Shown here: positions 16,870 to 55,673 of the stretch, one piece after another
Numbering within the stretch: the first letter of the stretch is position 1
How the letters are laid out: each line of letters begins with the position of its first letter
Position numbers and translations under genes: made by a program
Source: an uncultured archaeon
GTDB taxonomy: Archaea > Thermoproteota > Nitrososphaeria > Nitrososphaerales > Gagatemarchaeaceae
Length of the DNA: 64,000 bases
Direction: 5' to 3'
Assembly (NCBI GenBank): GCA_963817525.1
Contig: CAWFOU010000007.1
Span: 672,001-736,000, forward strand
Notes under the pieces: model-generated
What the model was told of the DNA's origin: nothing
What the model saw: only the letters and a program-made list of their open reading frames with translations
Databases searched by the model: none

Positions 16870-16940
16870 GACGCGTGGCAGTTTCGTCTTCATCCTGACT
16901 CGCGTCAGTCGAGGTTGCCCGTCGAAGCACGCCACGCGTC
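16870..16940 (-). ncRNA. Putative small structured ncRNA (non-tRNA); integration target
   Basis: 10-bp closing stem GACGCGTGGC/GCCACGCGTC, second stem, two hairpins capped by GNRA loops (GCAA, GCGA) on minus strand. Confidence 0.5.
16925..16940 (+). repeat. attL of outer element, AAGCACGCCACGCGTC
   Basis: Perfect 16-bp direct repeat with 30620-30635; 12 bp upstream of integrase ORF. Confidence 0.85.
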
Positions 16941-16952
16941 CCTTGCCCTACG

Positions 16953-18185
16953 ATGTTAAAACGCTATTCAAGCTATCGGGACGGTGAAGACGGGACGCTA
17001 TACAACTACGACTACTGGCTGAAGAACGCCTGGGAGATGCTCGACCGCTCGCCCAAGGTCAGCCAGCAGGACAAGGAGCGGGTTAGGGCGTTCGTCGAGA
17101 ACCTCAGAGTGAGGGCCCTGGGGACGGGGAGGCTCGCCAAGCACGTCCAGAAGCTCAAGGTGATGCTCGAGATCCTCGACGTCCCGCTTGACAGGGCGAC
17201 CAGGGCGGACGTCGAGAGGCTGGTCCTCGCGCTAGAGGAGAGGCACCTCCGCCCGGTCACCCTGATAGACTACCTCTTCATCATCAAGCGGTTCTTCAAG
17301 TTCGTGAAGTACGGGAACGTGGACAGGGAGACCCCCTACCCGGCGGAGGTGGCCTGGATCAAGAGGAGGATGAAGCCCAGCGAGGGCAGGACGGCCGAGT
17401 TCCTCACGCCCTCGGAGGTGAAGGCCATGATAGCAGCCGCCGAGAAGACGCGCGACAAGGCGATGATAGCCGTCGGGTTCGAGGGCGGGTTCAGGACGGG
17501 CGAGCTCCTGGGCCTCGAGATCCGCGACCTCTCGTTCGACGAGATGGGGGTGAAGGCGAAGGTGAGGGGAAAGACGGGAGAGCGGATCGTGAGGCTGATA
17601 TCGAGCGCGCCCCTCCTGACCGCATACCTCGAGACCCACCCGGAGTCGTCGGACCCCAGCGCGCCGCTGTGGCTCACGGAGGTGGGGAACTGGAAGAACA
17701 AGAGGGTCTCGTGGAGGGGGTGGAACGGCTCGCTCCAGTACATCGCGAAGAAGGCGGGCATCAGGGGAAAGCGCATCCACAGCTACCTCCTGCGGCACGG
17801 CTCGGCCACCGACGCGGCGAAGTATCTCTCCGACGCGGAGATGAAGGTGAGGTACGGCTGGACGATGGACTCGGGGATGCCGGCGGTCTACGTCCACCTG
17901 AGCTCCCAAGACCTGGACCCAAAGCTCGCGAGGATGTACTCAGGGAGGCCCCTGGAGCCGCAGAGGCCCGAGTTCGCCCCCGACGCCTGCCCAAGGTGCT
18001 CAGAGAAGAACACCCCAGGGATGAAGTTCTGCGGGAGGTGCGGTACGCCGCTGAATCGTGCTGAATTGGCCAAATCCTCGATCGAGACGCAGGAGATGAA
18101 GAACGACCTCCAAGACATCAAGAGGCTGCTCAGCGGATACCTCTCTCCAGGCTCACAAAACCCAACCGGAGGTAATGACAACTGA
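16953..18185 (+). CDS. Tyrosine integrase with C-terminal zinc ribbon
   Basis: GFEGGFRTGELL, KGKTG-like RGKTGER, HSYLLRHGSAT, RYGW...MPAVYVHL, CPRC...CGRCG. Confidence 0.93.
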   Translation: MLKRYSSYRDGEDGTLYNYDYWLKNAWEMLDRSPKVSQQDKERVRAFVENLRVRALGTGRLAKHVQKLKVMLEILDVPLDRATRADVERLVLALEERHLRPVTLIDYLFIIKRFFKFVKYGNVDRETPYPAEVAWIKRRMKPSEGRTAEFLTPSEVKAMIAAAEKTRDKAMIAVGFEGGFRTGELLGLEIRDLSFDEMGVKAKVRGKTGERIVRLISSAPLLTAYLETHPESSDPSAPLWLTEVGNWKNKRVSWRGWNGSLQYIAKKAGIRGKRIHSYLLRHGSATDAAKYLSDAEMKVRYGWTMDSGMPAVYVHLSSQDLDPKLARMYSGRPLEPQRPEFAPDACPRCSEKNTPGMKFCGRCGTPLNRAELAKSSIETQEMKNDLQDIKRLLSGYLSPGSQNPTGGNDN

Positions 18186-19705: not shown

Positions 19706-19838
19706 ATTGTAGTGATGAGACGACAGCTAAAGACGGTCAGACAAATCCGTCAAGCTCACTGCCAAGGTCCGGGTTAGCTTGCATCGACCGAAACGCGGAC
19801 TTTTTAGCGTCGTCCCCCCGGTAGGATTCTCCTAAAAT

Positions 19839-19858
19839 AATTAGTTGCATCCCTTCCG
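19839..19858 (+). repeat. Left att-like site of inner element, AATTAgttGCATCCCTTCCG
   Basis: Direct repeat with 30518-30537 (12-bp perfect core, 18/20 overall); upstream of integrase. Confidence 0.7.
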
Positions 19859-19915
19859 GCCCACTTAAACTCTTAAGAGAATCCCTTATTAGAAACCGAG
19901 TTCCCAAGGGAAAAC

Positions 19916-21205
19916 ATGCCCGCTGGGAGCAAGTACAACCACCTTCTCGAAGATCAGGACGTCCGCAGATGGTTTGAGAACCTCGAAGCGAAGTCGATCA
20001 TAACCGCCACGGTCTATCTTCGGACGATGGGACTCTACTGCGTGCTCGAAGGGACGACCCCAAAGAAGATACTCGCGGAAGCCAAGTCCAAGAGATTCCG
20101 CGACGAGTTCACGGACTTTATCCGGCGGATGGAGAAAGACGGGAAGGCTGGCTCCTACATAGAGCGGTTCAAGAAGGTCATCCTCTCCTGGACCTTCTAC
20201 AACAACCTCGACGTGAAGCTGAAAGTGAACATCAAGGGCACGTCAGAGACGCCAACAATCGCCAACGAAAGGATCCCGAGCAAGGACGAGCTTTCGAGGA
20301 TTCTCCGGATGGCCTCGCTTCGAGGAAGGGTCTCCGTTGCGATGATGGCGTTCAGCGGTCTGAGGCCGGAGAGTCTCGGCGACTACCTAGGAACGGACGG
20401 CATCAGACTCGCGGACTTCACGGAGGCGAAGATATCTGGCGCTAGGGTTGAATTCGAGAAGGTTCCGGCGATCCTGCTCGTCAGGAGAACCCTGAGCAAG
20501 GCAAGACATCCATACTTCTCGTTCGTGGGGACCGAGGCAATAACCTACATCCAGGAGTACATTCAGGAAAGGACCAAGTCCGGCGAGAAGCTGACCCCTG
20601 AGAGCCCTCTGCTGGCGTTCGACCCGAGAGGCGTAAGGAAGAACGCTTTCCTGAGAACCATCCTTGTGACTCGGGACATCAAGGAGGCGATAACGAAGGC
20701 AGGATTCACTTGGAGGCCCTACGTCCTGAGGGCCTACTGCGACACCAACATGATAGTGGCCGAGTCCAAGGGCCTGATTTCTCATCCATACCTCCAGTTC
20801 CTCATGGGGCACAAAGGGGACATTGAGGCCAGGTACTCCACCAACAAGGGCAGGCTCCCGCCTACGATGATCGAGGAGATGAGGGCAGTTTACAAGAAGT
20901 GCGAGCCCCTGCTCTCCACCAAGGCAGAGTCCGCCAGCGAGGAGCAGATCAAGAAGACACTGAGGGAGCAGTTTCTCGTTGTGGCGGGATTCAAGAAGGA
21001 AGAGGTCGAGAAGATGAACCTCGAAGAGATGACCGACGAGGAGCTCCAGAACGCCGTGAGACAGAGGCTGGTCGGCATGATGACCGGCAACGGTTCGAGG
21101 CAGAAGGTCATCCCGATTCAAGAGGTAAGGTCATTCATCGGGCAGGGATACGAGTACGTGGCGTCGCTCCCTGACGGCGGGGCGATAGTGAAGGTGCCGT
21201 TCTGA
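19916..21205 (+). CDS. Tyrosine site-specific integrase
   Basis: [34 protein letters not shown]. Confidence 0.92.
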
Positions 21206-21216
21206 GGGCGAGAGGC

Positions 21217-21687
21217 ATGCAGAGGCACGACTTCTACGATGTTCTCGGTGTTGCGAGGACGGCATCGAGCGGAACAATCAAGGAAGCCTACCGGAGGCTG
21301 GCCATCAGGTATCACCCCGACAGGAACAAGTCTCCCGACGCGGAGGAGAAGTTCAAGGAGGTCTCTCAGGCCTATTTCGTCCTGTCAGACGCCGAGAAGA
21401 GAGCCCTTTACGATGCTCTAGGCCCTGACAAATACGACGACCCTAAGGAAGTCTTCCGCTACTACGTCGAGCGTGAGGCGACTGCGCGCGAACTGAAGCG
21501 GGAGTACGAGGAGTCCAGGTCAAGAGAGCAGACCGGCATCATAGAATCGATGGGAGTGATCCTCTTCGGCCTCCTCGTGATAGACTTCGTGATTCCTACG
21601 TGGGTCTTTGGCCCATGGTTCTATGTGTTCAACGCCTTCCTTCTCCTTGCCCTCGTCAGCGGAGTCTACAGCTGGTCCAGGGCTTGA
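21217..21687 (+). CDS. J-domain (DnaJ-like) protein with two C-terminal TM helices
   Basis: DFYDVLGV...[29 protein letters not shown]; hydrophobic C-terminus. Confidence 0.88.
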
Positions 21688-21712
21688 TTCAACAAAAGGA
21701 GACTCGCTTGTG

Positions 21713-22243
21713 ATGGCCCTTGAATTTCTGAAGAGACGCTTCCGCGTGCAGAGGCTGGGAGACCTGACCCTGAACTGGATAAAGGTCCTCGCCTACCTGG
21801 AGAGCTCGAAGAGCGGAAGCAGGGAACCGTCTGCCGAGAAGCTGGCAGACGAGTTGGGCCTGGGGTCTGAGAACGTCATAACGGTCTACGCCTACCCCGC
21901 CCTTCGCAGGAAGGGATACGTCAGGCTGCTCGCCAGCAACCTGCCGGAGAGGGACGCCAACTCCTACGAGCTGACCCCGAAGGGCAGGAAGGCGCTCGGG
22001 TACTTCCTCAACACGTTCGGGTTCGCGGAGATGGGGACAATGGTAGTCGTGAGCCTGATTGTGGGGGCTGTGATTGGGCTGATGTCCCTCGCATACCTCC
22101 AGAACCCTCCCTTCTTCCCCCTTGCCCTGGGCTTGGTCATCTTCGCTGCCGTCATCGAAGCCTTCTTCTTCGCGTTCTCCGTGTGGGCGGCAAGGCAGAG
22201 GAGGAGAGAGGTGCTCCAAATCATGCTTCAAAAGCCCGAGTGA
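21713..22243 (+). CDS. Winged-helix protein with two C-terminal TM helices
   Basis: SAEKLADELGL...LRRKGYV...YELTPKGRK then two hydrophobic segments; AAGGAG upstream. Confidence 0.7.
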   Translation: MALEFLKRRFRVQRLGDLTLNWIKVLAYLESSKSGSREPSAEKLADELGLGSENVITVYAYPALRRKGYVRLLASNLPERDANSYELTPKGRKALGYFLNTFGFAEMGTMVVVSLIVGAVIGLMSLAYLQNPPFFPLALGLVIFAAVIEAFFFAFSVWAARQRRREVLQIMLQKPE

Positions 22244-22335
22244 CTTTGAGAGAATCGTAAGGAATAGCGGCGCAGAAACTGAGCTTCTCGGCTCACTCCC
22301 GGCGTCTATCATCTTACCACGCCATACTATGTGCC

Positions 22336-22512
22336 ATGCAGAATGTCGTGGACGTTCATCCGCTAAAGAGGACGGCAGCGAAGATCCTGCCTGACGACTC
22401 GATTCTGCGCAGGGTGCTGCTGTCGGAGCCCGATTCGTTGGAGGCGGGGGAATACGTCGCCAAGCTGGGCACATGGCTCGTGATTCTGAGGGAGGAGAGG
22501 ACGACGGATTGA
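22336..22512 (+). CDS. 58-aa helical protein (absent from ORF track), coupled to ATPase
   Basis: MQNVVDVHPLKRTAAKILPDDSILRRVLLSEPDSLEAGEYVAKLGTWLVILREERTTD; stop overlaps TTG start of ATPase (TTGA 22509-22512). Confidence 0.7.
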   Translation: MQNVVDVHPLKRTAAKILPDDSILRRVLLSEPDSLEAGEYVAKLGTWLVILREERTTD

Positions 22513-24413
22513 ACTTCTGGAAGTCCAAGCAAAGACGCGAGGACGAAGAGGAGGAAGCGGAGGCGTGGAGGCGGCAGCAGGAGTTCGAGGAGCAAGAGAT
22601 GAAGAGGGTGGAAGAGAGGGAGAAGCGTTGGAGGGAACTGCAGGAGAAGTACCACGTAGGCCGGGATGAGATAGAATACCAGTCGACGTCAGGCCTCGAC
22701 CATTGGAACCCCCGTCACCACGAGGAGCAGAAGCCGACTCCAGGGCACGTTGGGATAATCAGGATCGTCCAAAGGAACTCCGGCGAACAGTCCCAGTCCG
22801 AGCCTTACCGTAACGAGGAGTTCAGGTTCAAGTGGATAAACGAGGTCAAGAGGGTCGAGAGCAAGGAGAACGCGAACGTCTTCACGAGCGGGGCGTCGGG
22901 GGCCGGGAAGAGCAGCCTGGTCCGGCTCCTCCTCCGAGAATTCGAGGGACGACAGAAGGTCATCTTCTCGTTCAAGGTGAACGACACGCACCTCAGGATC
23001 GGCTATCCTGTCGCCGACGTAAGCGAGCTCGTCCCCAACCCGTTCGCGGATGTCGAGGCCTTCGTGAGCGCCTTTGCGATCGCGTTTCCGGTCAGCACCA
23101 TCGGGGTGACGGCCAGCCAGATCCCTTCTCTCGTCCAAGAACTTGCGTACGGGTGCACCTCCTGGAAGGGCTTCAACCGAAAAGTCGAGCGCAGGATAGG
23201 CGAGACCAAGGACAGAGTGCAACTCTCCGCGCTCTTCTTCATTCAGGGGCAGGCCAAATCCGTTCAGCTTGAAGAGAGTGGGAAGAGGCCCGATGCAATC
23301 AATCAGGCCATCCACACGGGCATGGACATCGTGCTCGACTTCTCTAGGTTATCGGACCCCGCGAAGGCGTTCTACGCCGAGCTGCTCCTCAGAGGGATAT
23401 GGAACGAGATGCAAGGGCAGACGACGGAAGCGAGGAAGAAGATTATCCTCTACGTGGACGAGGCCCACCGCCTCACCCGGGGCACCTTCGAGAAGTACCA
23501 CTCGGTCCTCGTCGAGATGGCGAGGGAGATAAGGGCGAGGGGAGCGCTCTGGACCTCGACCCAGAACTACACCGACATCGAGGACAGGATCAGGAACCAG
23601 TTCGCCACCCAGTTCGTCTTCAACACCTCGTCCAAGTCCGACCTCGAGGCGCTGAAGGCAATCGACCCGATGCTCTCCTGGGCCGTATCGGGGCTCTTGA
23701 AGCACCACTTCGTGGACGCGAAATCCAAGAGTGTTCACAAAGAGATCGAGATCCACACGTTCGTTCCGGAAAGCGAGAAGGATGTCCGACCCACCCCATT
23801 GGGCGAACTTCTAGCTGGAGTACTTCCACAGGAAGCCGGGACCGTAGACTACGACAATACGGTCAAGGAAGCGCTGGCCAAGGAAGGCGTCGTCTGGGTC
23901 TCTGCCCTTGCAAGCCAGTTCAGCAAGGACGGGAGAGTCGACAAGGACTCCGCGAAGCTGAAGGTCAGAGACGCCCTGGAGAAGCTGGTGGACGCTGATG
24001 ACCTTCAGAGGATGAGGTACGACGGAGCCGAAGCTGGCGGGACCATCGTCCTGTACTTCGCGAAAGGCGGGGATGAGAAGGTCAGCAACCTTCACAAGTA
24101 CATGGTGAGGCAGCTCGTCGATAGGCTGCGGGAGAATAACCAGGAGGTCCTCAACGTGGCAGACTCGGGGCAGAGTCTTCCCGATGTCGAGACGGAGAGC
24201 GCGTACTTCGAGATCGAGACAGGCTTGAAGACGAGGACGAGCGACCTTGAGGAGCGCATCTCGAGACTCAGTTCTACCAAGCCGTTCTTCGTCGTTGTTC
24301 CAAATTCCGACTTGGCGGGGAGCGACAGATACAGCTCTCTGAGAAGTCCCAGGGTTACGGTGACAACCCTTGCGCGGTTCCTGAAGGGACAGGCAGTGAC
24401 GCCCCAGCGGTGA
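22509..24413 (+). CDS. HerA/FtsK/VirB4-superfamily ATPase fused to C-terminal PD-(D/E)xK-like nuclease
   Basis: Walker A GASGAGKS, VLDFSRL, Walker B ILYVDEAHRL, STQ..DI...IRNQF; C-terminal LHK...LPDV....FEIETG...FFVVVPN. Confidence 0.8.
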   Translation: MNFWKSKQRREDEEEEAEAWRRQQEFEEQEMKRVEEREKRWRELQEKYHVGRDEIEYQSTSGLDHWNPRHHEEQKPTPGHVGIIRIVQRNSGEQSQSEPYRNEEFRFKWINEVKRVESKENANVFTSGASGAGKSSLVRLLLREFEGRQKVIFSFKVNDTHLRIGYPVADVSELVPNPFADVEAFVSAFAIAFPVSTIGVTASQIPSLVQELAYGCTSWKGFNRKVERRIGETKDRVQLSALFFIQGQAKSVQLEESGKRPDAINQAIHTGMDIVLDFSRLSDPAKAFYAELLLRGIWNEMQGQTTEARKKIILYVDEAHRLTRGTFEKYHSVLVEMAREIRARGALWTSTQNYTDIEDRIRNQFATQFVFNTSSKSDLEALKAIDPMLSWAVSGLLKHHFVDAKSKSVHKEIEIHTFVPESEKDVRPTPLGELLAGVLPQEAGTVDYDNTVKEALAKEGVVWVSALASQFSKDGRVDKDSAKLKVRDALEKLVDADDLQRMRYDGAEAGGTIVLYFAKGGDEKVSNLHKYMVRQLVDRLRENNQEVLNVADSGQSLPDVETESAYFEIETGLKTRTSDLEERISRLSSTKPFFVVVPNSDLAGSDRYSSLRSPRVTVTTLARFLKGQAVTPQR

Positions 24414-24434
24414 CGTGGGGGCCGCTTATTGCTC

Positions 24435-24637
24435 GCCCATAGCATGCAACACCCTTCAGGCTCGTCCTTCGCTCCGCGGCGAATTCACCCCCCGCGATGC
24501 CTTCGGCACCGCTCGCTGCGCTCGCTTCGCTTCCCCCCTCTTCGCCGCTCCGCTCGGACTTCGCCTTCACCCCGCTTCGAAGCGGGGCCGCTCATTGTCG
24601 CTTCGCTTGATTCGCGGGGGTGTTGCATGCTATGGGC
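24435..24637. other. Fold-back non-coding element with 20-bp perfect terminal inverted repeat and internal hairpins
   Basis: GCCCATAGCATGCAACACCC (24435-24454) / GGGTGTTGCATGCTATGGGC (24618-24637); 18-bp palindrome 24570-24587; repeated CGCTYCGCT. Confidence 0.75.
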
Positions 24638-24680
24638 TCGCGAGGAGGGAGAGGAAAGGGGGAAGAATTGGGCTATCCCG
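24629..24680 (+). repeat. G-rich ~52-bp motif, copy 1
   Basis: GCTATGGGCTCGCGaGGAGGGagaGGAAAGGGGGAAGaATtGGGCTATcCCG; matches 28077-28130. Confidence 0.85.
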
Positions 24681-24818
24681 GCGGAAAGAGACGGTTCTCG
24701 AGGCGTACCCCTTCTACGGGTACTACATGCGTCACCGGAGAGGAAAGTAATCAACCTGGTTCTAGTTTCGTAAAATATAAACATAAGAATCGTTCTTTGC
24801 GAATTCGGTATCATCCGC

Positions 24819-25094
24819 TTGTGGCATGGGATTAGGAGGAGGACGTGGAGAGACATTATCGCTTCGGTCCTTGAGTGCCTTGTCAAGGCGCCTTCGACCC
24901 AAAACAAGATAATGACCTCGACAAATCTGAACCGAGACACCGCAAGAGACTATCTTCAAGGGATGGTCTCCCTGAGGCTGGTCAGGACTCTCTCTGACTC
25001 CAAGGAGCACACGATCTACGCCATGACGGAGAAAGGGAGACGCTGGCTCAAACTGTACAAGAGCTTGCTGGCTGAGGAAGAATCGCAGGAATGA
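24819..25094 (+). CDS. Winged helix-turn-helix transcription regulator (HTH_45-like)
   Basis: RRRTWRDIIASVL...KIMTSTNLN...YL...YAMTEKGRRWL. Confidence 0.8.
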   Translation: MWHGIRRRTWRDIIASVLECLVKAPSTQNKIMTSTNLNRDTARDYLQGMVSLRLVRTLSDSKEHTIYAMTEKGRRWLKLYKSLLAEEESQE

Positions 25095-25181
25095 AGCAAG
25101 GACCTCCATCCGAATATCTTCGAAAGCCATTACTGGCGTACGATCACAGCGAAATTTTCTGAGACCATAATCTGTAAAGCG

Positions 25182-25208
25182 GGATTTGTAATCCCGGATT
25201 ACAAATCC
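25182..25208. promoter_or_regulatory. 27-bp perfect palindrome (candidate operator)
   Basis: GGATTTGTAATCC-C-GGATTACAAATCC, just upstream of TATA-like TTTATTA of gene 25273. Confidence 0.6.
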
Positions 25209-25272
25209 GGGATGTTAGATTCTGCATGATTTATTACCCTCGGATTAGTGACATTAGCCGAGGAATCAGAAC

Positions 25273-26091
25273 TTGACCTCAAGAAAGGGCGCACTTGGCG
25301 TAGTGAGGCTTGTGTTCTTCGCGCTGCTTACGCTTCTGTTGCTCAATTCGGTCGGGATGTTGAACCGGTTACCAATGGCCTACGCCCAAACTTACACGTG
25401 CTCCGACCAGTACACAAGCCATAACACTGCTGCTCCTAACGGTGGTGTTGGGTACTACTACGAATGGGCCAGTAGCAGCAACAGTAACGAATACGGCGTC
25501 TATGGCGAGCTAAAGGCCACGTCATGGAATTATGATGGCGATACGTCCGGGCATGAAGTGCTTTGGGTAAACATGGCTCTCTCCGGGGGTTACTGGGCAC
25601 AGTCAGGGGTCGTCGCCGGCGTTTTGCCAGGAAACTCATATTCATCAACTCGGTATCCATATGTGGAGTGGAATGCACCGGGACAGTACTACGCATACAT
25701 TTTCACTAGTTATCCGATTTCTGGCACGGACACGATTTATGCAGAGGACTACGTAGAAAGCTATAGCGGCGGCAACTACTACTACGAAGTGTATGTATAT
25801 AGCACCAGTTACGCAACAGCATGGTATACGACAAAGAGTTTCGGGAGCACATATTATCTAGGTGACCCGACAACAGCAGGAGAGACCTATTACACTCAGA
25901 CTAGTGAGAACTGCGACCTATACGTCAATTACTCCTCGTCGCTTGCCTACTCCTCAAGTGTCAGTTCTAGCCCGTCTTGGACATCCTGGTCAAGTTCTAG
26001 CATCACCTATACCGATACAAATTACACCTATTTCCAGAATAGCGCAACATCGTGGAACTTCTGTTCAGATAACTATGTCAGTTATTGCTAG
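25273..26091 (+). CDS. Secreted Tyr/Ser-rich protein, glutamic-peptidase-like (G1/neprosin-type fold)
   Basis: Signal peptide; YGVYGEL, LWVNM...YWAQSG, YVEW, AGET motifs echo the catalytic Gln/Glu layout. Confidence 0.5.
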   Translation: MTSRKGALGVVRLVFFALLTLLLLNSVGMLNRLPMAYAQTYTCSDQYTSHNTAAPNGGVGYYYEWASSSNSNEYGVYGELKATSWNYDGDTSGHEVLWVNMALSGGYWAQSGVVAGVLPGNSYSSTRYPYVEWNAPGQYYAYIFTSYPISGTDTIYAEDYVESYSGGNYYYEVYVYSTSYATAWYTTKSFGSTYYLGDPTTAGETYYTQTSENCDLYVNYSSSLAYSSSVSSSPSWTSWSSSSITYTDTNYTYFQNSATSWNFCSDNYVSYC

Positions 26092-26104
26092 ATTGAAATG
26101 GAGA

Positions 26105-26848
26105 ATGTTCGAGAGATTGAAAAGCAGAATCGTAATCGCCCTAATCATAACGGCCTTGGCGCTGGGGTCTGGCGTTCTTGTCTCGACCTTTTCGGTTGAC
26201 AGCGCCATCAGCCAAAATGGCATTCCAAGTGCTACTTCAAATGTGAACCCCACTCCCTCGAGTGGTGCGATGCCGATGAAACTGGTCTTGCATACGCCAC
26301 AGTATGTGGAAGGCATCATTCATCAATCATTGATTTTACCGGATGTGACCGTTCTCGGTCCCTCGTACAGGATTCTGGGGGCCATGGTCGAAGGCCCAGT
26401 GAACTTGACTGCGACCAATCAATCACCATGGGAAGTACTCATCTACCTCTCGAACCAGCCTACTTCTTCCTTCGTGAATGGAACCACGACTGACCTTGAC
26501 GTCTTGAAAAGCGGAGGAGTCGTGATCGCCGAAGATGGAGTTCCGACTGGAATGGCGCTGAATAGTACTGCCGCTGCCCAAGCCGATCTGGCACCTCAAG
26601 TGCTTTGCACCGGCAAGGGGATGAATCCGACGCCTGCTGATTCGAGCTGCACGACTCAATCCTACACGGGGAATGGCTATATCGTGACCCAGAATGGGCT
26701 CGCAATTGTTGTGAACCCGGGGGGGCCGGGACTAGTGTGGGTTGACAATAGAAACCGCATGGGAGTGAGTATCGACGGCGATACACAAACCGTTCAACAA
26801 TTGCTGGACCTTGCGAGCACATTGACTGAACCTACGACGACACAGTGA
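26105..26848 (+). CDS. Membrane-anchored extracellular hypothetical protein
   Basis: TM helix after MFERLKSR; C-terminal LVWVD...VSIDG...QQLLDLA. Confidence 0.65.
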   Translation: MFERLKSRIVIALIITALALGSGVLVSTFSVDSAISQNGIPSATSNVNPTPSSGAMPMKLVLHTPQYVEGIIHQSLILPDVTVLGPSYRILGAMVEGPVNLTATNQSPWEVLIYLSNQPTSSFVNGTTTDLDVLKSGGVVIAEDGVPTGMALNSTAAAQADLAPQVLCTGKGMNPTPADSSCTTQSYTGNGYIVTQNGLAIVVNPGGPGLVWVDNRNRMGVSIDGDTQTVQQLLDLASTLTEPTTTQ

Positions 26849-26920
26849 TATGAAACCGGTTTCAGTGTTGTACAACCAGGTCTATTAAGGTCGGAGCATC
26901 ATATTCAGTGAAGGCGCAAG

Positions 26921-27436
26921 ATGAATTCGCCACCAGTCCGTAACAAGCGGCTCTACGCAACCATCGTGGCAGCGATAGTCATCGCCGCGGTTGTAGCCTC
27001 TGCTACCATCATTGCCTCATCTGCACTCTATACCACGGTCACAAAAACTACGACCACCACTGTTTTCCTAGCGTCATCTTCCAGCGCCTGCGGACAACTC
27101 GCATCAACTCCGTTGTTCTTACTCATAGCGAACAGTTCGACAGGAAGGCGGATTAGTGGAGTACCAGTCGAAGTCGAGAAGACCACACCCACCGACTTGT
27201 GCAACCCAATCTCGACAACAACAGTCAACCTTGGCACCATGGAGACGAACGTGAATGGGTCGATTGAGCTCTGCTGCAGTGGTTCAACGTTCTTCTTCAC
27301 ATTCACATATATGGGTGCCCATTACCAATTCAACTCGACAGCAGAAGGGGCAGAGATTGCTCAATGCGTCTGGTTCAGCATACCATCGGCTACATCAACT
27401 ACTGAGTTTGCAGCTCCATTCGACCCTCAATGCTAA
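26921..27436 (+). CDS. Membrane-anchored Thr/Cys-rich hypothetical protein
   Basis: TM helix, Thr linker, prealbumin-like ISGVPVEV...TNVNG. Confidence 0.65.
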   Translation: MNSPPVRNKRLYATIVAAIVIAAVVASATIIASSALYTTVTKTTTTTVFLASSSSACGQLASTPLFLLIANSSTGRRISGVPVEVEKTTPTDLCNPISTTTVNLGTMETNVNGSIELCCSGSTFFFTFTYMGAHYQFNSTAEGAEIAQCVWFSIPSATSTTEFAAPFDPQC

Positions 27437-28076
27437 GTGCCCCGATACAGACTGCAAAACGGCAAGGATAACGGCATTCAATCCACTCGATGCGTAAGAA
27501 GAGGACGGAGGACGCAGTGAGCTTTCCCCCGGGAGGTGCACCCACATGGGAGACGCCCTTCCGCTGCCGTCGGTTCTTCCCTCGTGGGTGCCTCGGCCAT
27601 ACCAAGCGAGGCAGGGCCTCCTCTTAACGCGGCCGAGAGCCGAAAGCGGGTGGAAGCGGGCCCGACGGTCCTCCTACCAGAACGAGTCCACGCCCGTGTT
27701 GATTCTTCGGTCATTTCCGTTAGGCTTGGACATGCTCAGATGAGACTGGCTTTGAGCATATAATTGTGCCAACGAGGTCTCTCGGGACGGGAACCCTTAG
27801 CACCCCATCTCAATCGGATTTTGCTAGGGTGTGAAGGAGAGAATTATTGCCCACGTCTCAAATAATTGCTTGCAGCCCTTCCGAGTTGAACCGAGCTGTT
27901 CTCACTTGGTCTAGAGTCAGGGGATTGTTTCCTCTGGTCCAAGCCGACATCTCCAAATCCAATGGTCCACAATGTGAATTTGAACTCAATTGCGTTTAAG
28001 AACCGGCGACCGCACTTAACTCTTCGCGTCCAAGACACCGACGGTGTCAAAGCGGGAAGTCGAATCTGCGACATAC

Positions 28077-28130
28077 GCTATGGGCTCGCGTGGAGGGGGG
28101 AGGGAAAGGGGGAAGTATCGGGCTATTCCG
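28077..28130 (+). repeat. G-rich ~54-bp motif, copy 2
   Basis: GCTATGGGCTCGCGtGGAGGGgggagGGAAAGGGGGAAGtATcGGGCTATtCCG. Confidence 0.85.
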
Positions 28131-28357
28131 AAAGAAACAAACCCGAAAAGGGATACACCCGTTGAAGGGGTATCTTTCCGCCTATGGTTTCGGTTGATCT
28201 TCTACAGAAGCGCGTTGCCGAGCTGAGCAATCTGGTCGCAGTCATTCACTGAAGCCCTGAAGAACGACGACTGCTTAGTAACATTCCCATGACTACAGCG
28301 GTGTATTTTAACCAAAGCGGTAACCTTTAATAGAAGAATCTTCTGCAAACGATTTTC

Positions 28358-29654
28358 ATGAAAGGCGGCCAGTCTCTTCGACATGCGTACGTCAGAAGCC
28401 CGTTGCTCTTTCTGCTGGTGATTTCTCCTGTTGCGATGCTCGCTACAGCTGGAGTCAGTGCTTCAGTCGCTGCATGTACAAATGCCACTGTCGACCGCGG
28501 CAGTTCTGGATACGAATGTACCTTTCACGCAACAGAGCGCCGTAAGTCTCACAGAGTCATCAACAGAATATTTGAGCGCAGTCAGTGGTTACAGCTCTAC
28601 ATTGCTCGGTATCGGCAACGAGTGGAATTTTGATTCCGCCACGTGCAGCGTTTCATTCGATAGCTTCGCCATGAACTATCTCCTGAAGGCTTCAAATGGA
28701 ACACAATTCGAACTCACGTTGGGGGTTAAACCACAGACCGATGATATATTCGGGGCCACAATGCGACCCGTGGTAAAGCATACTCTCCTCCCGATTAATC
28801 ACAGTTCTTCGAGCACGTATTCTACGACCTATTCTGGGTACGCCCTCGCAGCCAATGGCAATTATAACTCGGCAGTAAGCTACAGCACAGCTTATTGGTA
28901 TATCCCTCAAATTTCTGCTCCATCAGGAGGTTGTGGTTCTAGTATTTTTTCAAATCCTCCTAAATGCTGGCTCGACGTCTGGGTCGGATTGCAGAATAGC
29001 ACCTACGATGGGACTAACTACGTGCCGGCTCATGGAGAAGTATTTCAGACCGGAACGGAGGGAGATTGCTTCAGTTCATGCACTGGGAGCGGTGCCCCTG
29101 AATATTCAGGGTGGTCTGCATATCTTAATGCTGATTCGAGTGGGATTGTACAGAATCTTGTACAATCTTGCAACAGTGATTTTTCTGCCTCGGCCGGTGA
29201 TGAGATGTACGGAGTCGTAGGCACTGCGTACGAAATCAGTGGCGGATCTAGTAGCACCTTCGACACCGAGCTGAGAGACTTTAACAACGGCTCTATCTGC
29301 GACTTTTCGTATAATTCATCAACCTCTTGCGGACAGTCCGATTGTAAAATCGCAGGCACAGAATACTTCGCGGACTACTTTATCGAAACGCCTCAGGATG
29401 GGAGTGACAGCGGGACCCCATTCATGTTGCCGAAGTTTACCGAGATATCCGACGCTGGCGACCTGTTTTATGTAATGGGGATGCTATCCTCCTCTCAGGG
29501 TTCGTACCCCTATTACAATGACGGCTATTACTTGACGTCGGATATGGGCAACAGTGGAACGCATAACACGCATACTTCCGCGATGTCCGAAAACAGCGGG
29601 AGCACCTATGCTTATTTCAACGAAAAGTGGTTAAGCAGTGCAAACACCGGGTAG
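28358..29654 (+). pseudogene. Secreted family G1 glutamic peptidase (Peptidase_A4/eqolisin-like), frameshifted near 28485
   Basis: STTYSGY, AYWYIP, DVWVGL, FQTGT, YSGW, AGDEM, ADYFIETP, LPKF; signal peptide in frame of 28358, body in frame of 28431. Confidence 0.75.
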
Positions 29655-29764
29655 TCGATTCCCTTAGGGAGTCATTGATATTCGCGCTCCGGCTTGGGAT
29701 GATCCTTGCTCGGATATTCCAAAAGACGTAATTTTAGTGGAGGCTCCCTTCTTAGTTAGGAGGA

Positions 29765-30394
29765 ATGAACGTGCGTTTTGCGAACGTTACAAGGAGCAAT
29801 CAGGGCGTTCTGGTTGGCGCCCTTGCGGGTCTCGTGATAATTGTTCTCTTGACCCTGCAAGTTGCAAACTCCGCCGGCGACCTTGGGATTAAGCCAAAGA
29901 CAGTCACTATCACACACGTCGAGACTCCGACCTCGTCTACCGAGCTGATTGTCGAATGGGTCAACGACAGCTTCTCTCAGCACATGCTCCTGCTCGGCTC
30001 GGGAAATGTTTCCGCGATCGTCTCGCAATACGCAGGAAACGCGAACGTCTCGTGGTTCGGAGAAGTGGGGCCATGCTTCGGCGGCACATACCCTCTTGCT
30101 GGCGACAACGGCAACTTTAGCCAACTCATGAACGCCTTCATCGTTAAGTACGCCCATACCTTGGTTATAGGGAAAGTCGCTCGGACGATAATGTCCCAGT
30201 CAAACGGATCAGTAGTCGTCGAATCCGCGTTCGGGTTTGCGACACGAGGTTCTTCCTACGGTATCAACAACGGCACAGTCTCCGCCCAAGACTTGTATAC
30301 ATACTCTGCGACGAATGGAGCTTGGTTGATTTCGCGAGAAGCCTGGGACTTTACTACATTCGATGTGATGTACCTCGGCTGCGTGGAGGGGTGA
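29765..30394 (+). CDS. Membrane-anchored protein with NTF2/SnoaL-like domain
   Basis: TM helix; NVSAIVSQYAGNANVSWFG...NGAWLISREAWDF. Confidence 0.6.
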   Translation: MNVRFANVTRSNQGVLVGALAGLVIIVLLTLQVANSAGDLGIKPKTVTITHVETPTSSTELIVEWVNDSFSQHMLLLGSGNVSAIVSQYAGNANVSWFGEVGPCFGGTYPLAGDNGNFSQLMNAFIVKYAHTLVIGKVARTIMSQSNGSVVVESAFGFATRGSSYGINNGTVSAQDLYTYSATNGAWLISREAWDFTTFDVMYLGCVEG

Positions 30395-30517
30395 CATGAA
30401 ATCAAATACGACCCGAGTAACCGAAGAGGCTCTATTCAACGGCTTGCCAGCGCGGCGGTTCCACTAGCTCAGATTGTTCTAGGCACTATTCGAAGGCCGA
30501 AGGAGATTCGCTTAAGA

Positions 30518-30537
30518 AATTAATGGCATCCCTTCCG
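30518..30537 (+). repeat. Right att-like site of inner element, AATTAatgGCATCCCTTCCG
   Basis: Direct repeat of 19839-19858. Confidence 0.7.
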
Positions 30538-30619: not shown

Positions 30620-30635
30620 AAGCACGCCACGCGTC
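30620..30635 (+). repeat. attR of outer element, AAGCACGCCACGCGTC
   Basis: Perfect repeat of 16925-16940. Confidence 0.85.
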
Positions 30636-30735
30636 TCCCTTCCGCGGCTCCAGGCTTCGTATATATCATCCGCTCGTCTTGGCGGCGACCTGAAATCGTT
30701 AATTAGCTCTCCCGGCCTGTTTTCCCCGGACGAAC

Positions 30736-31308: not shown

Positions 31309-31400
31309 GGCCCTGACCGGGATTTGAACCCGGGTCGGAAGGTGACTGCGGATTTCTCCTCCACAGCCTTCTATGCTAACCAGGCTGCACTATCAGGGCC
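31309..31400 (-). tRNA. tRNA-His(GTG) with 17-nt intron (31344-31360) at 37/38, encoded G-1
   Basis: GCCCTGA/TCAGGGC acceptor, GAAGG-CT GTG G[intron]A-CCTTC, BHB-compatible pairing. Confidence 0.95.
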
Positions 31401-55579: not shown

Positions 55580-55673
55580 TGGCGGGCCCGGCAAGATTTG
55601 AACTCGCGGCCACTGGCTCTCTTCCATCGTCAGATAGAAGGCCAGTGCTCTATCCATTCTGAGCTACGGGCCC
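55580..55673 (-). tRNA. tRNA-Arg(TCT) with 16-nt intron (55619-55634), encoded CCA
   Basis: GGGCCCG/CGGGCCC acceptor, CTGGC-CT TCT A[intron]A-GCCAG, GTTCAAATC. Confidence 0.95.

Follow-up and report, generated by a model that had tools for sequence, protein, structure and literature searches.

Why should two different sets of secreted and membrane-anchored proteins be headed by one and the same G-rich motif? The question is raised by a 64,000-nucleotide (nt) stretch of archaeal DNA (the window; contig CAWFOU010000007.1 of an uncultured member of the Gagatemarchaeaceae), in which two direct copies of a ~52-bp motif each precede a cargo cassette. An initial annotation took the motif for a nick or recombination point at which cassettes are captured. 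The explanation favoured here, with moderate confidence, is that the motif forms the 5' edge of a module that acts in cis and is carried by elements that integrate at the 3' end of a tRNA-Ile gene through a divergent tyrosine integrase (Int2) and stack at the attachment (att) site. The module, ~108 nt long, is the 3' part of a ~300-nt noncoding unit that belongs to the backbone of this family of small integrative elements. What the data show directly is the layout of the elements, their att site, the breakpoints in the population, the fold of the unit and the persistence of the module in deletion derivatives; what the module does is inferred.

The repeated motif

The two halves of the motif (21 and 24 nt) match twice each in the window, at 24629 and 28077 and at 24653 and 28103, and neither half finds a chance match in 100 shuffles. 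Aligned pairwise, the copies agree at 46 of 52 positions with a 2-nt indel, very nearly as first described (about 45), and the 2.8-Mb host genome, which was also scanned, yielded no third copy. A profile extends the likeness to ~108 nt (24629-24728 versus 28077-28184). The similar hairpin that had been noticed 3' of both copies is present, and recurs in nearly all relatives with four consensus pairs; three of its pairs are formed in 16-17 of 18 sequences, and one pair covaries. Likeness between the copies begins inside the right arm of a fold-back around copy 1 (arms 24431-24454 and 24617-24641). The fold-back is real and, as the initial annotation had it, nothing like its left arm occurs near copy 2, arm-like matches being confined to 24436 and 24636.

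Integration at tRNA-Ile

The motif and its surroundings were compared across 97 genomes of one Nitrososphaerota family (96 besides the host) and 304 genomes from 19 other families of the same order; population variants were sought in metagenome contigs from four runs, which are short, of low depth and weaker evidence than raw reads. Related loci share a conserved AT-rich arm followed by a core (D4 box). The core is the 3' end of tRNA-Ile, and in L030 it forms the end of the tRNA gene itself. ARAGORN places a tRNA-Ile(GAT) ending 50-55 nt upstream of Int2 in five of 12 loci (L021, L023, L029, L030, L031), and all five have a D4 box downstream of the noncoding unit, closing the element. The combination of a tRNA-Ile next to Int2 and a closing D4 box thus identifies small integrative elements targeting tRNA-Ile, which measure 3.6-8.7 kb across the related loci. 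Contigs have loose ends at 19821, 19864 and 30537, all at edges of D4 boxes (one contig at low depth for each). The 20 letters past 30537 in the X4 contig are identical (20/20) to the flank of the host's own tRNA-Ile, which lies on the same contig as the window and outside it. Reading the D4 box as a mere promoter was abandoned when the core proved to be the 3' end of tRNA-Ile, although the box may in addition hold a promoter that points outward. An empty site of a related element (G049), sought in the 97 genomes with the flanks of that element, was not found.

The host tRNA-Ile (G000:C7:1045856-1045917; L318 1501-1562) is followed by an open reading frame (ORF) whose start resembles the Int2 N-terminus, so that an element of the wider family seems to sit at this locus, too. 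About 750 nt upstream there is a 35-nt partial copy of the tRNA end in inverted orientation.

Judged by its sequence, the Int2 protein is a divergent tyrosine recombinase. Six residues (R150, K195, Y269, R272, H299, Y307) are invariant in 28 homologs, 11 of which match Pfam Phage_integrase (PF00589; best E = 2.2e-8); the family profile finds the structure of archaeal XerA (4a8e, E = 4.8e-4), and close homologs are named 'site-specific integrase' in their sources. Its C-terminal extension is 120 residues long. The family is broad, with 311 stretches in archaeal bins labelled Nitrososphaerota, Thermoplasmata and Bathyarchaeia. The noncoding unit lies 3' of 11 of the 12 close homologs (at least 79% identity, downstream sequence present) but of none of 65 distant ones. 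Five short contigs (2.1-2.6 kb; L125, L127-L130), from bins labelled Thermoplasmatota or Thermoplasmatales and four of them in one bin, hold an Int2 homolog and little else, which suggests a multi-copy element breaking assemblies.

Between Int2 and the unit, the window carries a block of three genes that ends with an FtsK/HerA/VirB4-like ATPase. This block is optional. It is missing from L024, L026 and L029, and the X5 contig (90-95% alike) joins 21206 to 24429 with 13 other letters between, as in a relative devoid of it. In nine of 12 twenty-kb loci the unit comes after the stop codon of the ATPase or Int2 gene, the other three showing neither gene. The initial annotation had assigned the driving role to an 'ATPase-nuclease'. 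That assignment is not supported, and Int2 is the enzyme that fits: many relatives lack the ATPase, the integrase then being followed directly by the unit, and no nuclease domain was found in it with Pfam or NCBIfam or by comparing its C-terminal 207 residues with solved structures.

Stacked elements and divergent cargo

An element runs from the tRNA-Ile 3' end (att) through Int2, the optional DnaJ/membrane/ATPase block, the unit and two to four cargo genes for secreted and membrane proteins to the closing D4 box. On this plan, a complete first element would occupy 19824-27883 of the window. A second, directly behind it, would lack the whole stretch that begins with the integrase and ends with the inner half of the right arm, and would retain 28077-30537, with the module, the cargo and the closing att. 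Such stacking would proceed by repeated Int2-mediated integration at the tRNA-derived att, followed by internal deletion, and would leave non-autonomous, cassette-like elements.

That related elements stack cargo modules, as the initial annotation had supposed, is seen in G031, where four motif-only copies, each heading a cassette, come after one full unit on the same strand at spacings of 2.5-6 kb. D4 boxes with short remnants of the integrase-side arm precede two of these copies by 35 and 76 nt; the cassettes concerned are thus elements in which both att arms, the 108-nt module and the cargo survive, while the integrase and the rest of the unit are gone. In the window, D4 box 2 precedes copy 2 by 206 nt, and the second cassette is closed by D4 box 3. 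The noncoding stretch just 5' of copy 2 (27961-28066) matches two places in G031 (C3:1399556-1399648 and 1400526-1400580) at 89-91% identity.

Cargo varies far more than the sequences around it. The loci of G049 and G065 are 97.4% identical over 15.4 kb and carry unrelated cargo (3.18 versus 1.47 kb), the difference starting right after the motif and ending exactly at the D4 box. The motif-only copies (11 examined, those of G049 and G065 belonging to the same element) are 80-97% identical, the peptidase-like proteins behind them 25-30%. Likewise, the second cassettes of the window and of G031 are positional counterparts with proteins 28% identical, while the two ATPases share 87% of their residues and the motifs 97% over 35 nt. 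Conserved ends with divergent cargo imply that the cargo is either replaced or evolving very fast. A DNA search with both cassettes of the window found no close copy elsewhere in the family, just short noncoding matches.

The noncoding unit

A first search matched the motif region in 16 of the 97 family genomes. With the whole unit as query, 22 of the 96 other family genomes match, and none of the 304 from other families. The unit is 69-93% identical to the first 13 related loci, with sharp edges, and because the matches carry indels and inserted hairpins it must be noncoding, as had been concluded for the motif. Exact-pattern scans of metagenome contigs (at least 119 loci) and of viral contigs (33 loci) added little: no viral locus fits the motif profile, and among the 152 loci listed only L209 and L302 are true hits, L289 being doubtful. 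Rfam has no match for the unit; only tRNAs reach gathering scores in the window, and the best hit in 24300-24900 has E = 9.9. Supplementary files aside, which might list such elements, the unit is not described in the portions of the literature consulted on integrated elements of Thaumarchaeota (PMC6563490), archaeal tyrosine recombinases (PMC8371274) or archaeal integrons, and literature searches directed at the unit or its context listed no paper on it.

The unit has a conserved fold. Across 23 full units, the consensus comprises 48 pairs, with 96.1% paired versus 89.4% in shuffles (none of 500 as high), and 17 pairs show compensatory change, both sides being altered. The covariation score is 0.238, against 0.120 in shuffles and 0.03-0.06 with partners slid. 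Seven compensatory pairs belong to the arms, and six of the eight pairs of an internal long-range helix, whose strands lie ~120-150 nt apart, are compensatory as well. Since this internal helix covaries, a pair of protein-binding inverted repeats cannot by itself explain the unit, which therefore folds as a single strand, either RNA or single-stranded DNA.

The fold bears on the alternative that survives best, though it too is rather unlikely. The unit could be a structured RNA, derived from the 3' untranslated region or the read-through transcript of the integrase operon, with the modules as short RNA versions that serve stability, processing or antitermination; or it could be a cis site for replication, transfer or packaging that hitch-hiking derivatives retain. 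Beyond the covarying internal helix, GAAA and UUCG loops cap the inserted hairpins solely when these are read on the + strand, and T-runs of at least four follow 10 of 33 copies compared with 11% of background windows. By eye, and with no promoter scan run, no AT-rich box resembling a promoter could be made out in the stretch from the preceding stop codon to the unit. On the other hand, counts of G-U and A-C leave the strand undecided (~19 versus 18 cells outside one pair, by hand tally), the fold energy of the single sequence is ordinary relative to shuffles (z = -0.7 for the + strand, -1.6 for the - strand), and the post-motif hairpin has just four consensus pairs. A terminator was considered and rejected, as a run of at least five T stands behind just 4 of 33 copies. 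Transfer loci are known to be placed beside FtsK-like transfer genes, and the position of the unit, 18 nt past the ATPase stop codon, may be comparable.

Two further variants of the unit may be mentioned. L047 (1452-1883) and L209 (1135-1258) hold decayed copies with an inverted interior; L047 also has, upstream, a RelE-like gene and a tRNA-like 3' end, and 110 nt beyond the copy a stray left-arm fragment. In L049 (1369-1640), the unit lacks its first ~60 nt and lies ~40 nt past a tRNA gene, a deletion endpoint unlike the common one.

The module and its 5' edge

The module is kept in every deletion derivative. At 10 of the 11 motif-only sites the ORFs that follow run in the same direction as the module, the eleventh site being on a short contig where no ORF of at least 70 amino acids was found, and the module sits 130-250 nt upstream of TATA-like boxes. 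The TATA-like runs of the window lie at 24771-24781 and 28304-28332, the latter ~25-50 nt 5' of the ATG at 28358. These three features (retention, orientation and position) are the reason for reading the module as a cis signal that stays with the cargo. Most likely, though at somewhat less than even chances, it is a regulatory signal for the cargo operon. It might be bound by a factor of the element, such as the winged-helix protein encoded by the first cargo gene, or act in a read-through transcript from the integrase operon.

The abruptness of the motif's 5' edge can be explained in two ways. It is better read as a constraint edge, the point at which selection stops, than as a crossover point. 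A crossover point is what the initial annotation had in mind, and the corresponding alternative is that recombination takes place at the motif itself or at the two-arm stem, used as a secondary att or an attC-like site (perhaps in folded single-stranded DNA as for integron attC or the CTX-phage attP), with cassettes entering and leaving between the inner and outer halves of the right arm. This is unlikely, even though several findings fit it. In the profile, eight of the 11 motif-only copies begin to resemble the unit at one point, give or take ~5 nt, so that the constant breakpoint which had been proposed as a check is found in most of them; in the other three the start is displaced, by 12-30 nt to the 5' side or by 10 nt to the 3' side. 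The junction of mosaic arms falls at that common point, two lineages have an inverted interior, the G049/G065 swap begins at the motif with three mismatches inside it, the covarying 24-bp stem could provide a duplex site in single-stranded DNA, and G031 holds an array of five copies. Against it, a conventional att derived from a tRNA is already available to Int2, the far end of the swapped cargo is a D4 box and not a second motif, and motif-only copies, having no left arm, are unable to fold. The checkable mixed-arm or inverted copies (L004, L047/L048) have no integrase nearby. In the contigs, breakpoints number three at D4 boxes and none at the motif copies, there being no joint or loose end at 24629 or 28077 in the four runs, albeit at low depth. 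A deletion of 24629-28076, which a nick at the motif could produce, was likewise not seen in any contig, which at such length and depth is no evidence of absence.

The arms were also considered as an invertible switch, a reading that was dropped. All 23 aligned full units have the same orientation, most of them behind an integrase or ATPase gene, and the checkable inverted copies without a nearby integrase disfavour this reading further; contigs inverting 24455-24616 were not found in the four runs, which, the contigs being short and of low depth, is no evidence of absence either.

Stacking at att followed by deletion, the preferred explanation, has several points weighing against it. In the window, the cores of D4 boxes 2 and 3 are degenerate. 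No residual likeness to the integrase side or the unit was found in the 190 nt that precede copy 2, the scores lying within those of shuffles, and deletion of a full second element here is inferred by analogy with G031. The constant 5' edge is tighter than random deletion endpoints would yield, and explaining it calls for a hot spot or for copies that share an ancestor and whose flanks have decayed. Three loci (L004, L008, L020) have arms of mixed type, and two lineages (L047/L048/L068 and L209) carry the interior of the unit in the opposite orientation to the motif; each of these findings shows that DNA exchange does happen within the arms. Finally, the host genome is a bin with 8.75% contamination, so local misassembly is possible.

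Two other proposals fare worse. One is that the unit, as a structured RNA or folded single strand, acts together with Int2 or with its cargo switch, the left arm of the unit, which is complementary to the 13-nt head of every module copy, pairing in trans to choose the cassette to be expressed or recombined; this is very improbable. The other, that the G-runs form a functional quadruplex, can be set aside almost entirely: the canonical pattern (four runs of at least three G, loops of 1-7 nt) fits copy 2 but only 3 of 31 aligned copies overall, and 12 of 31 even with loops of up to 12 nt, and a variant in genus g10 lacks 12 nt of the G-rich tract.

Relation to known systems

Site-specific accretion is familiar from streptococci, where integrative and conjugative elements and cis-mobilizable elements form arrays in tandem at one att, together with non-autonomous, att-flanked derivatives. 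The stacking machinery described here is tRNA-targeting tandem accretion, a kind already known, here accompanied by a conserved unit. As in such elements, a tyrosine integrase adjoins a tRNA 3' end and a direct repeat of that end closes the element at its far side, members lie in tandem with att copies between them, some lack the integrase, and alternative junctions at the att core are found in the population. The differences are the very small size, the conserved ~300-nt structured unit and the retention of the same 108-nt piece by all derivatives. The setting also differs: the host is a soil member of the Nitrososphaerota, and the composite lies within a 13.7-kb excisable segment with a second integrase. 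Tandem arrays of archaeal integrase elements are mentioned in the paper on integrated elements of Thaumarchaeota (PMC6563490).

The initial annotation had suggested an integron- or ISCR-like (insertion sequence common region) mechanism. Integrons are reported in Archaea in a preprint consulted in part (bioRxiv 10.1101/2022.02.06.479319), and the present elements resemble them in their co-oriented cargo modules, the repeated site between these and the adjacent tyrosine recombinase. They differ in that the crossover site is a tRNA-derived att and the integrase does not match the IntI model; NCBIfam assigns Int2 to no family at all, and thus not to the integron integrases. Moreover, the cassettes have their own promoter-like boxes, and the repeated motif is not an imperfect palindrome of the attC type: motif-only copies lack the left arm and their sole consensus hairpin has four pairs (an attC covariance model was not run). 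No integron-type or HUH/ISCR-type protein, such as the Rep-type transposase of ISCR/IS91 elements, was detected with Pfam, PHROGs or NCBIfam among the ORFs tested between 16953 and 32169.

The module itself is reminiscent of other signals. In phages lambda and HK022, the nut and put sites combine a conserved linear box with a hairpin at the head of each operon. The module likewise consists of a conserved box (~50-100 nt) and a hairpin whose sequence varies, and it recurs, oriented with transcription, before different gene sets. In contrast to nut and put sites, TATA-like boxes lie downstream of the module. No antitermination system of this type is known in archaea.

Cargo genes and wider setting

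The coordinates of all features are collected in Table 1. The first cargo gene of the complete element is followed by genes for proteins without a Pfam or PHROGs family. Each motif copy had been said to precede a glutamic-peptidase-like gene, which is supported for copy 2 only. A profile of eight homologs of the protein encoded there (frames 28358 and 28431) finds aspergillopepsin II (E = 5.2e-6) and scytalidopepsin B (E = 0.008) in alignments that span the WVG...QTG and E-containing segments, although none of the eight members matches the Pfam G1 family at E <= 10. The secreted protein behind copy 1 (25273) matches it only at BLASTP E = 0.27. Genes of the peptidase-G1-like family stand behind 8 of the 11 motif-only copies.

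The peptidase-like gene is split in the assembly (28358-28633 and 28431-29654). An X2 contig lacks one base at 28495, which would unite signal peptide and body; the frameshift reflects a genuine variant or else a fault of the assembly. A 29-nt inverted repeat with a 1-nt gap (25166-25224) separates the winged-helix gene from the first secreted-protein gene. An overlapping piece (25184-25234) is 89% identical to G000:C7:1231806-1231858, beside a winged-helix paralog, and one X2 contig skips 25080-25190.

The composite and a second integrase, Int1, lie together inside a segment of 13,695 bp. The X1 contig joins 16924 to 30620 across this segment, with 16 shared letters, and so represents the empty site. 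Int1 begins 12 nt past the left 16-bp repeat. It scores E = 2.3e-20 against the XerA-type model of NCBIfam, under the model cutoff, and 16.5 bits against the integron-integrase model, whose cutoff is 265. Two tRNA matches of 91-94 nt on the - strand (31309-31399 and 55580-55673) are probably intron-bearing; ARAGORN missed the first and called the second tRNA-Pyl(cta), probably a miscall.

Table 1. Features of the composite and its boundaries, in window coordinates.
Feature	Coordinates	Strand	Description
16-bp direct repeat, left copy	16926..16941	.	Bounds the 13.7-kb excisable segment
Int1	16953..18185	+	Tyrosine integrase with C-terminal zinc ribbon; Pfam Phage_integrase, E = 3.7e-14
D4 box 1	19824..19863	+	att: conserved arm, core (3' end of tRNA-Ile), integrase-side arm; attP-like or tandem junction
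Int2	19916..21205	+	Divergent tyrosine integrase, 429 amino acids, hallmark of the element; catalytic residues, Pfam, XerA match
Optional block	21217..24413	+	DnaJ-domain protein 21217-21687, membrane protein 21608-22243, FtsK/HerA/VirB4-like ATPase 22473-24413; Pfam, NCBIfam, PHROGs
Structured noncoding unit	24431..24728	+	Arms 24431-24454 and 24617-24641; covarying helices; conserved in relatives
Motif copy 1	24629..24728	+	3' module of the unit: outer half of right arm, G-rich tract, small hairpin
Winged-helix regulator	24819..25094	+	First cargo gene; Pfam HTH_45, E = 3.4e-12; homolog behind the unit in G031
Cargo 1	25273..27436	+	Secreted Tyr/Ser-rich protein 25273-26091; two membrane-anchored proteins (ending 26848; 26921-27436)
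D4 box 2	27857..27883	+	Degenerate att arm and left core part, then unrelated flank; putative end of first element
Motif copy 2	28077..28184	+	108-nt module alone, heading the putative internally deleted second element; profile match to model positions 220 to 325
Secreted peptidase-G1-like gene	28358..29654	+	Frameshifted in assembly; frames start at 28358 and 28431; signal peptide in 28358 frame
Membrane-anchored partner protein	29765..30394	+	Homolog follows the peptidase-like gene in G031
D4 box 3	30502..30537	+	att arm and left core part; putative end of second element
16-bp direct repeat, right copy	30621..30636	.	Bounds the 13.7-kb excisable segment

Implications

If the improbable pairing in trans were true, it would add an RNA-programmed layer to a tyrosine-recombinase element. 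On the preferred explanation, soil Nitrososphaerota harbour a compact and abundant family of integrative elements that have an att, a hallmark integrase, variable secreted-protein cargo and non-autonomous derivatives, and these elements show how cassette-like arrays can pile up without integron machinery. The unit is conserved more than most of the surrounding proteins, and one fixed piece of it survives every deletion; among the mobile elements of archaea, it is therefore a good candidate for a new signal that acts in cis, on either regulation or replication.

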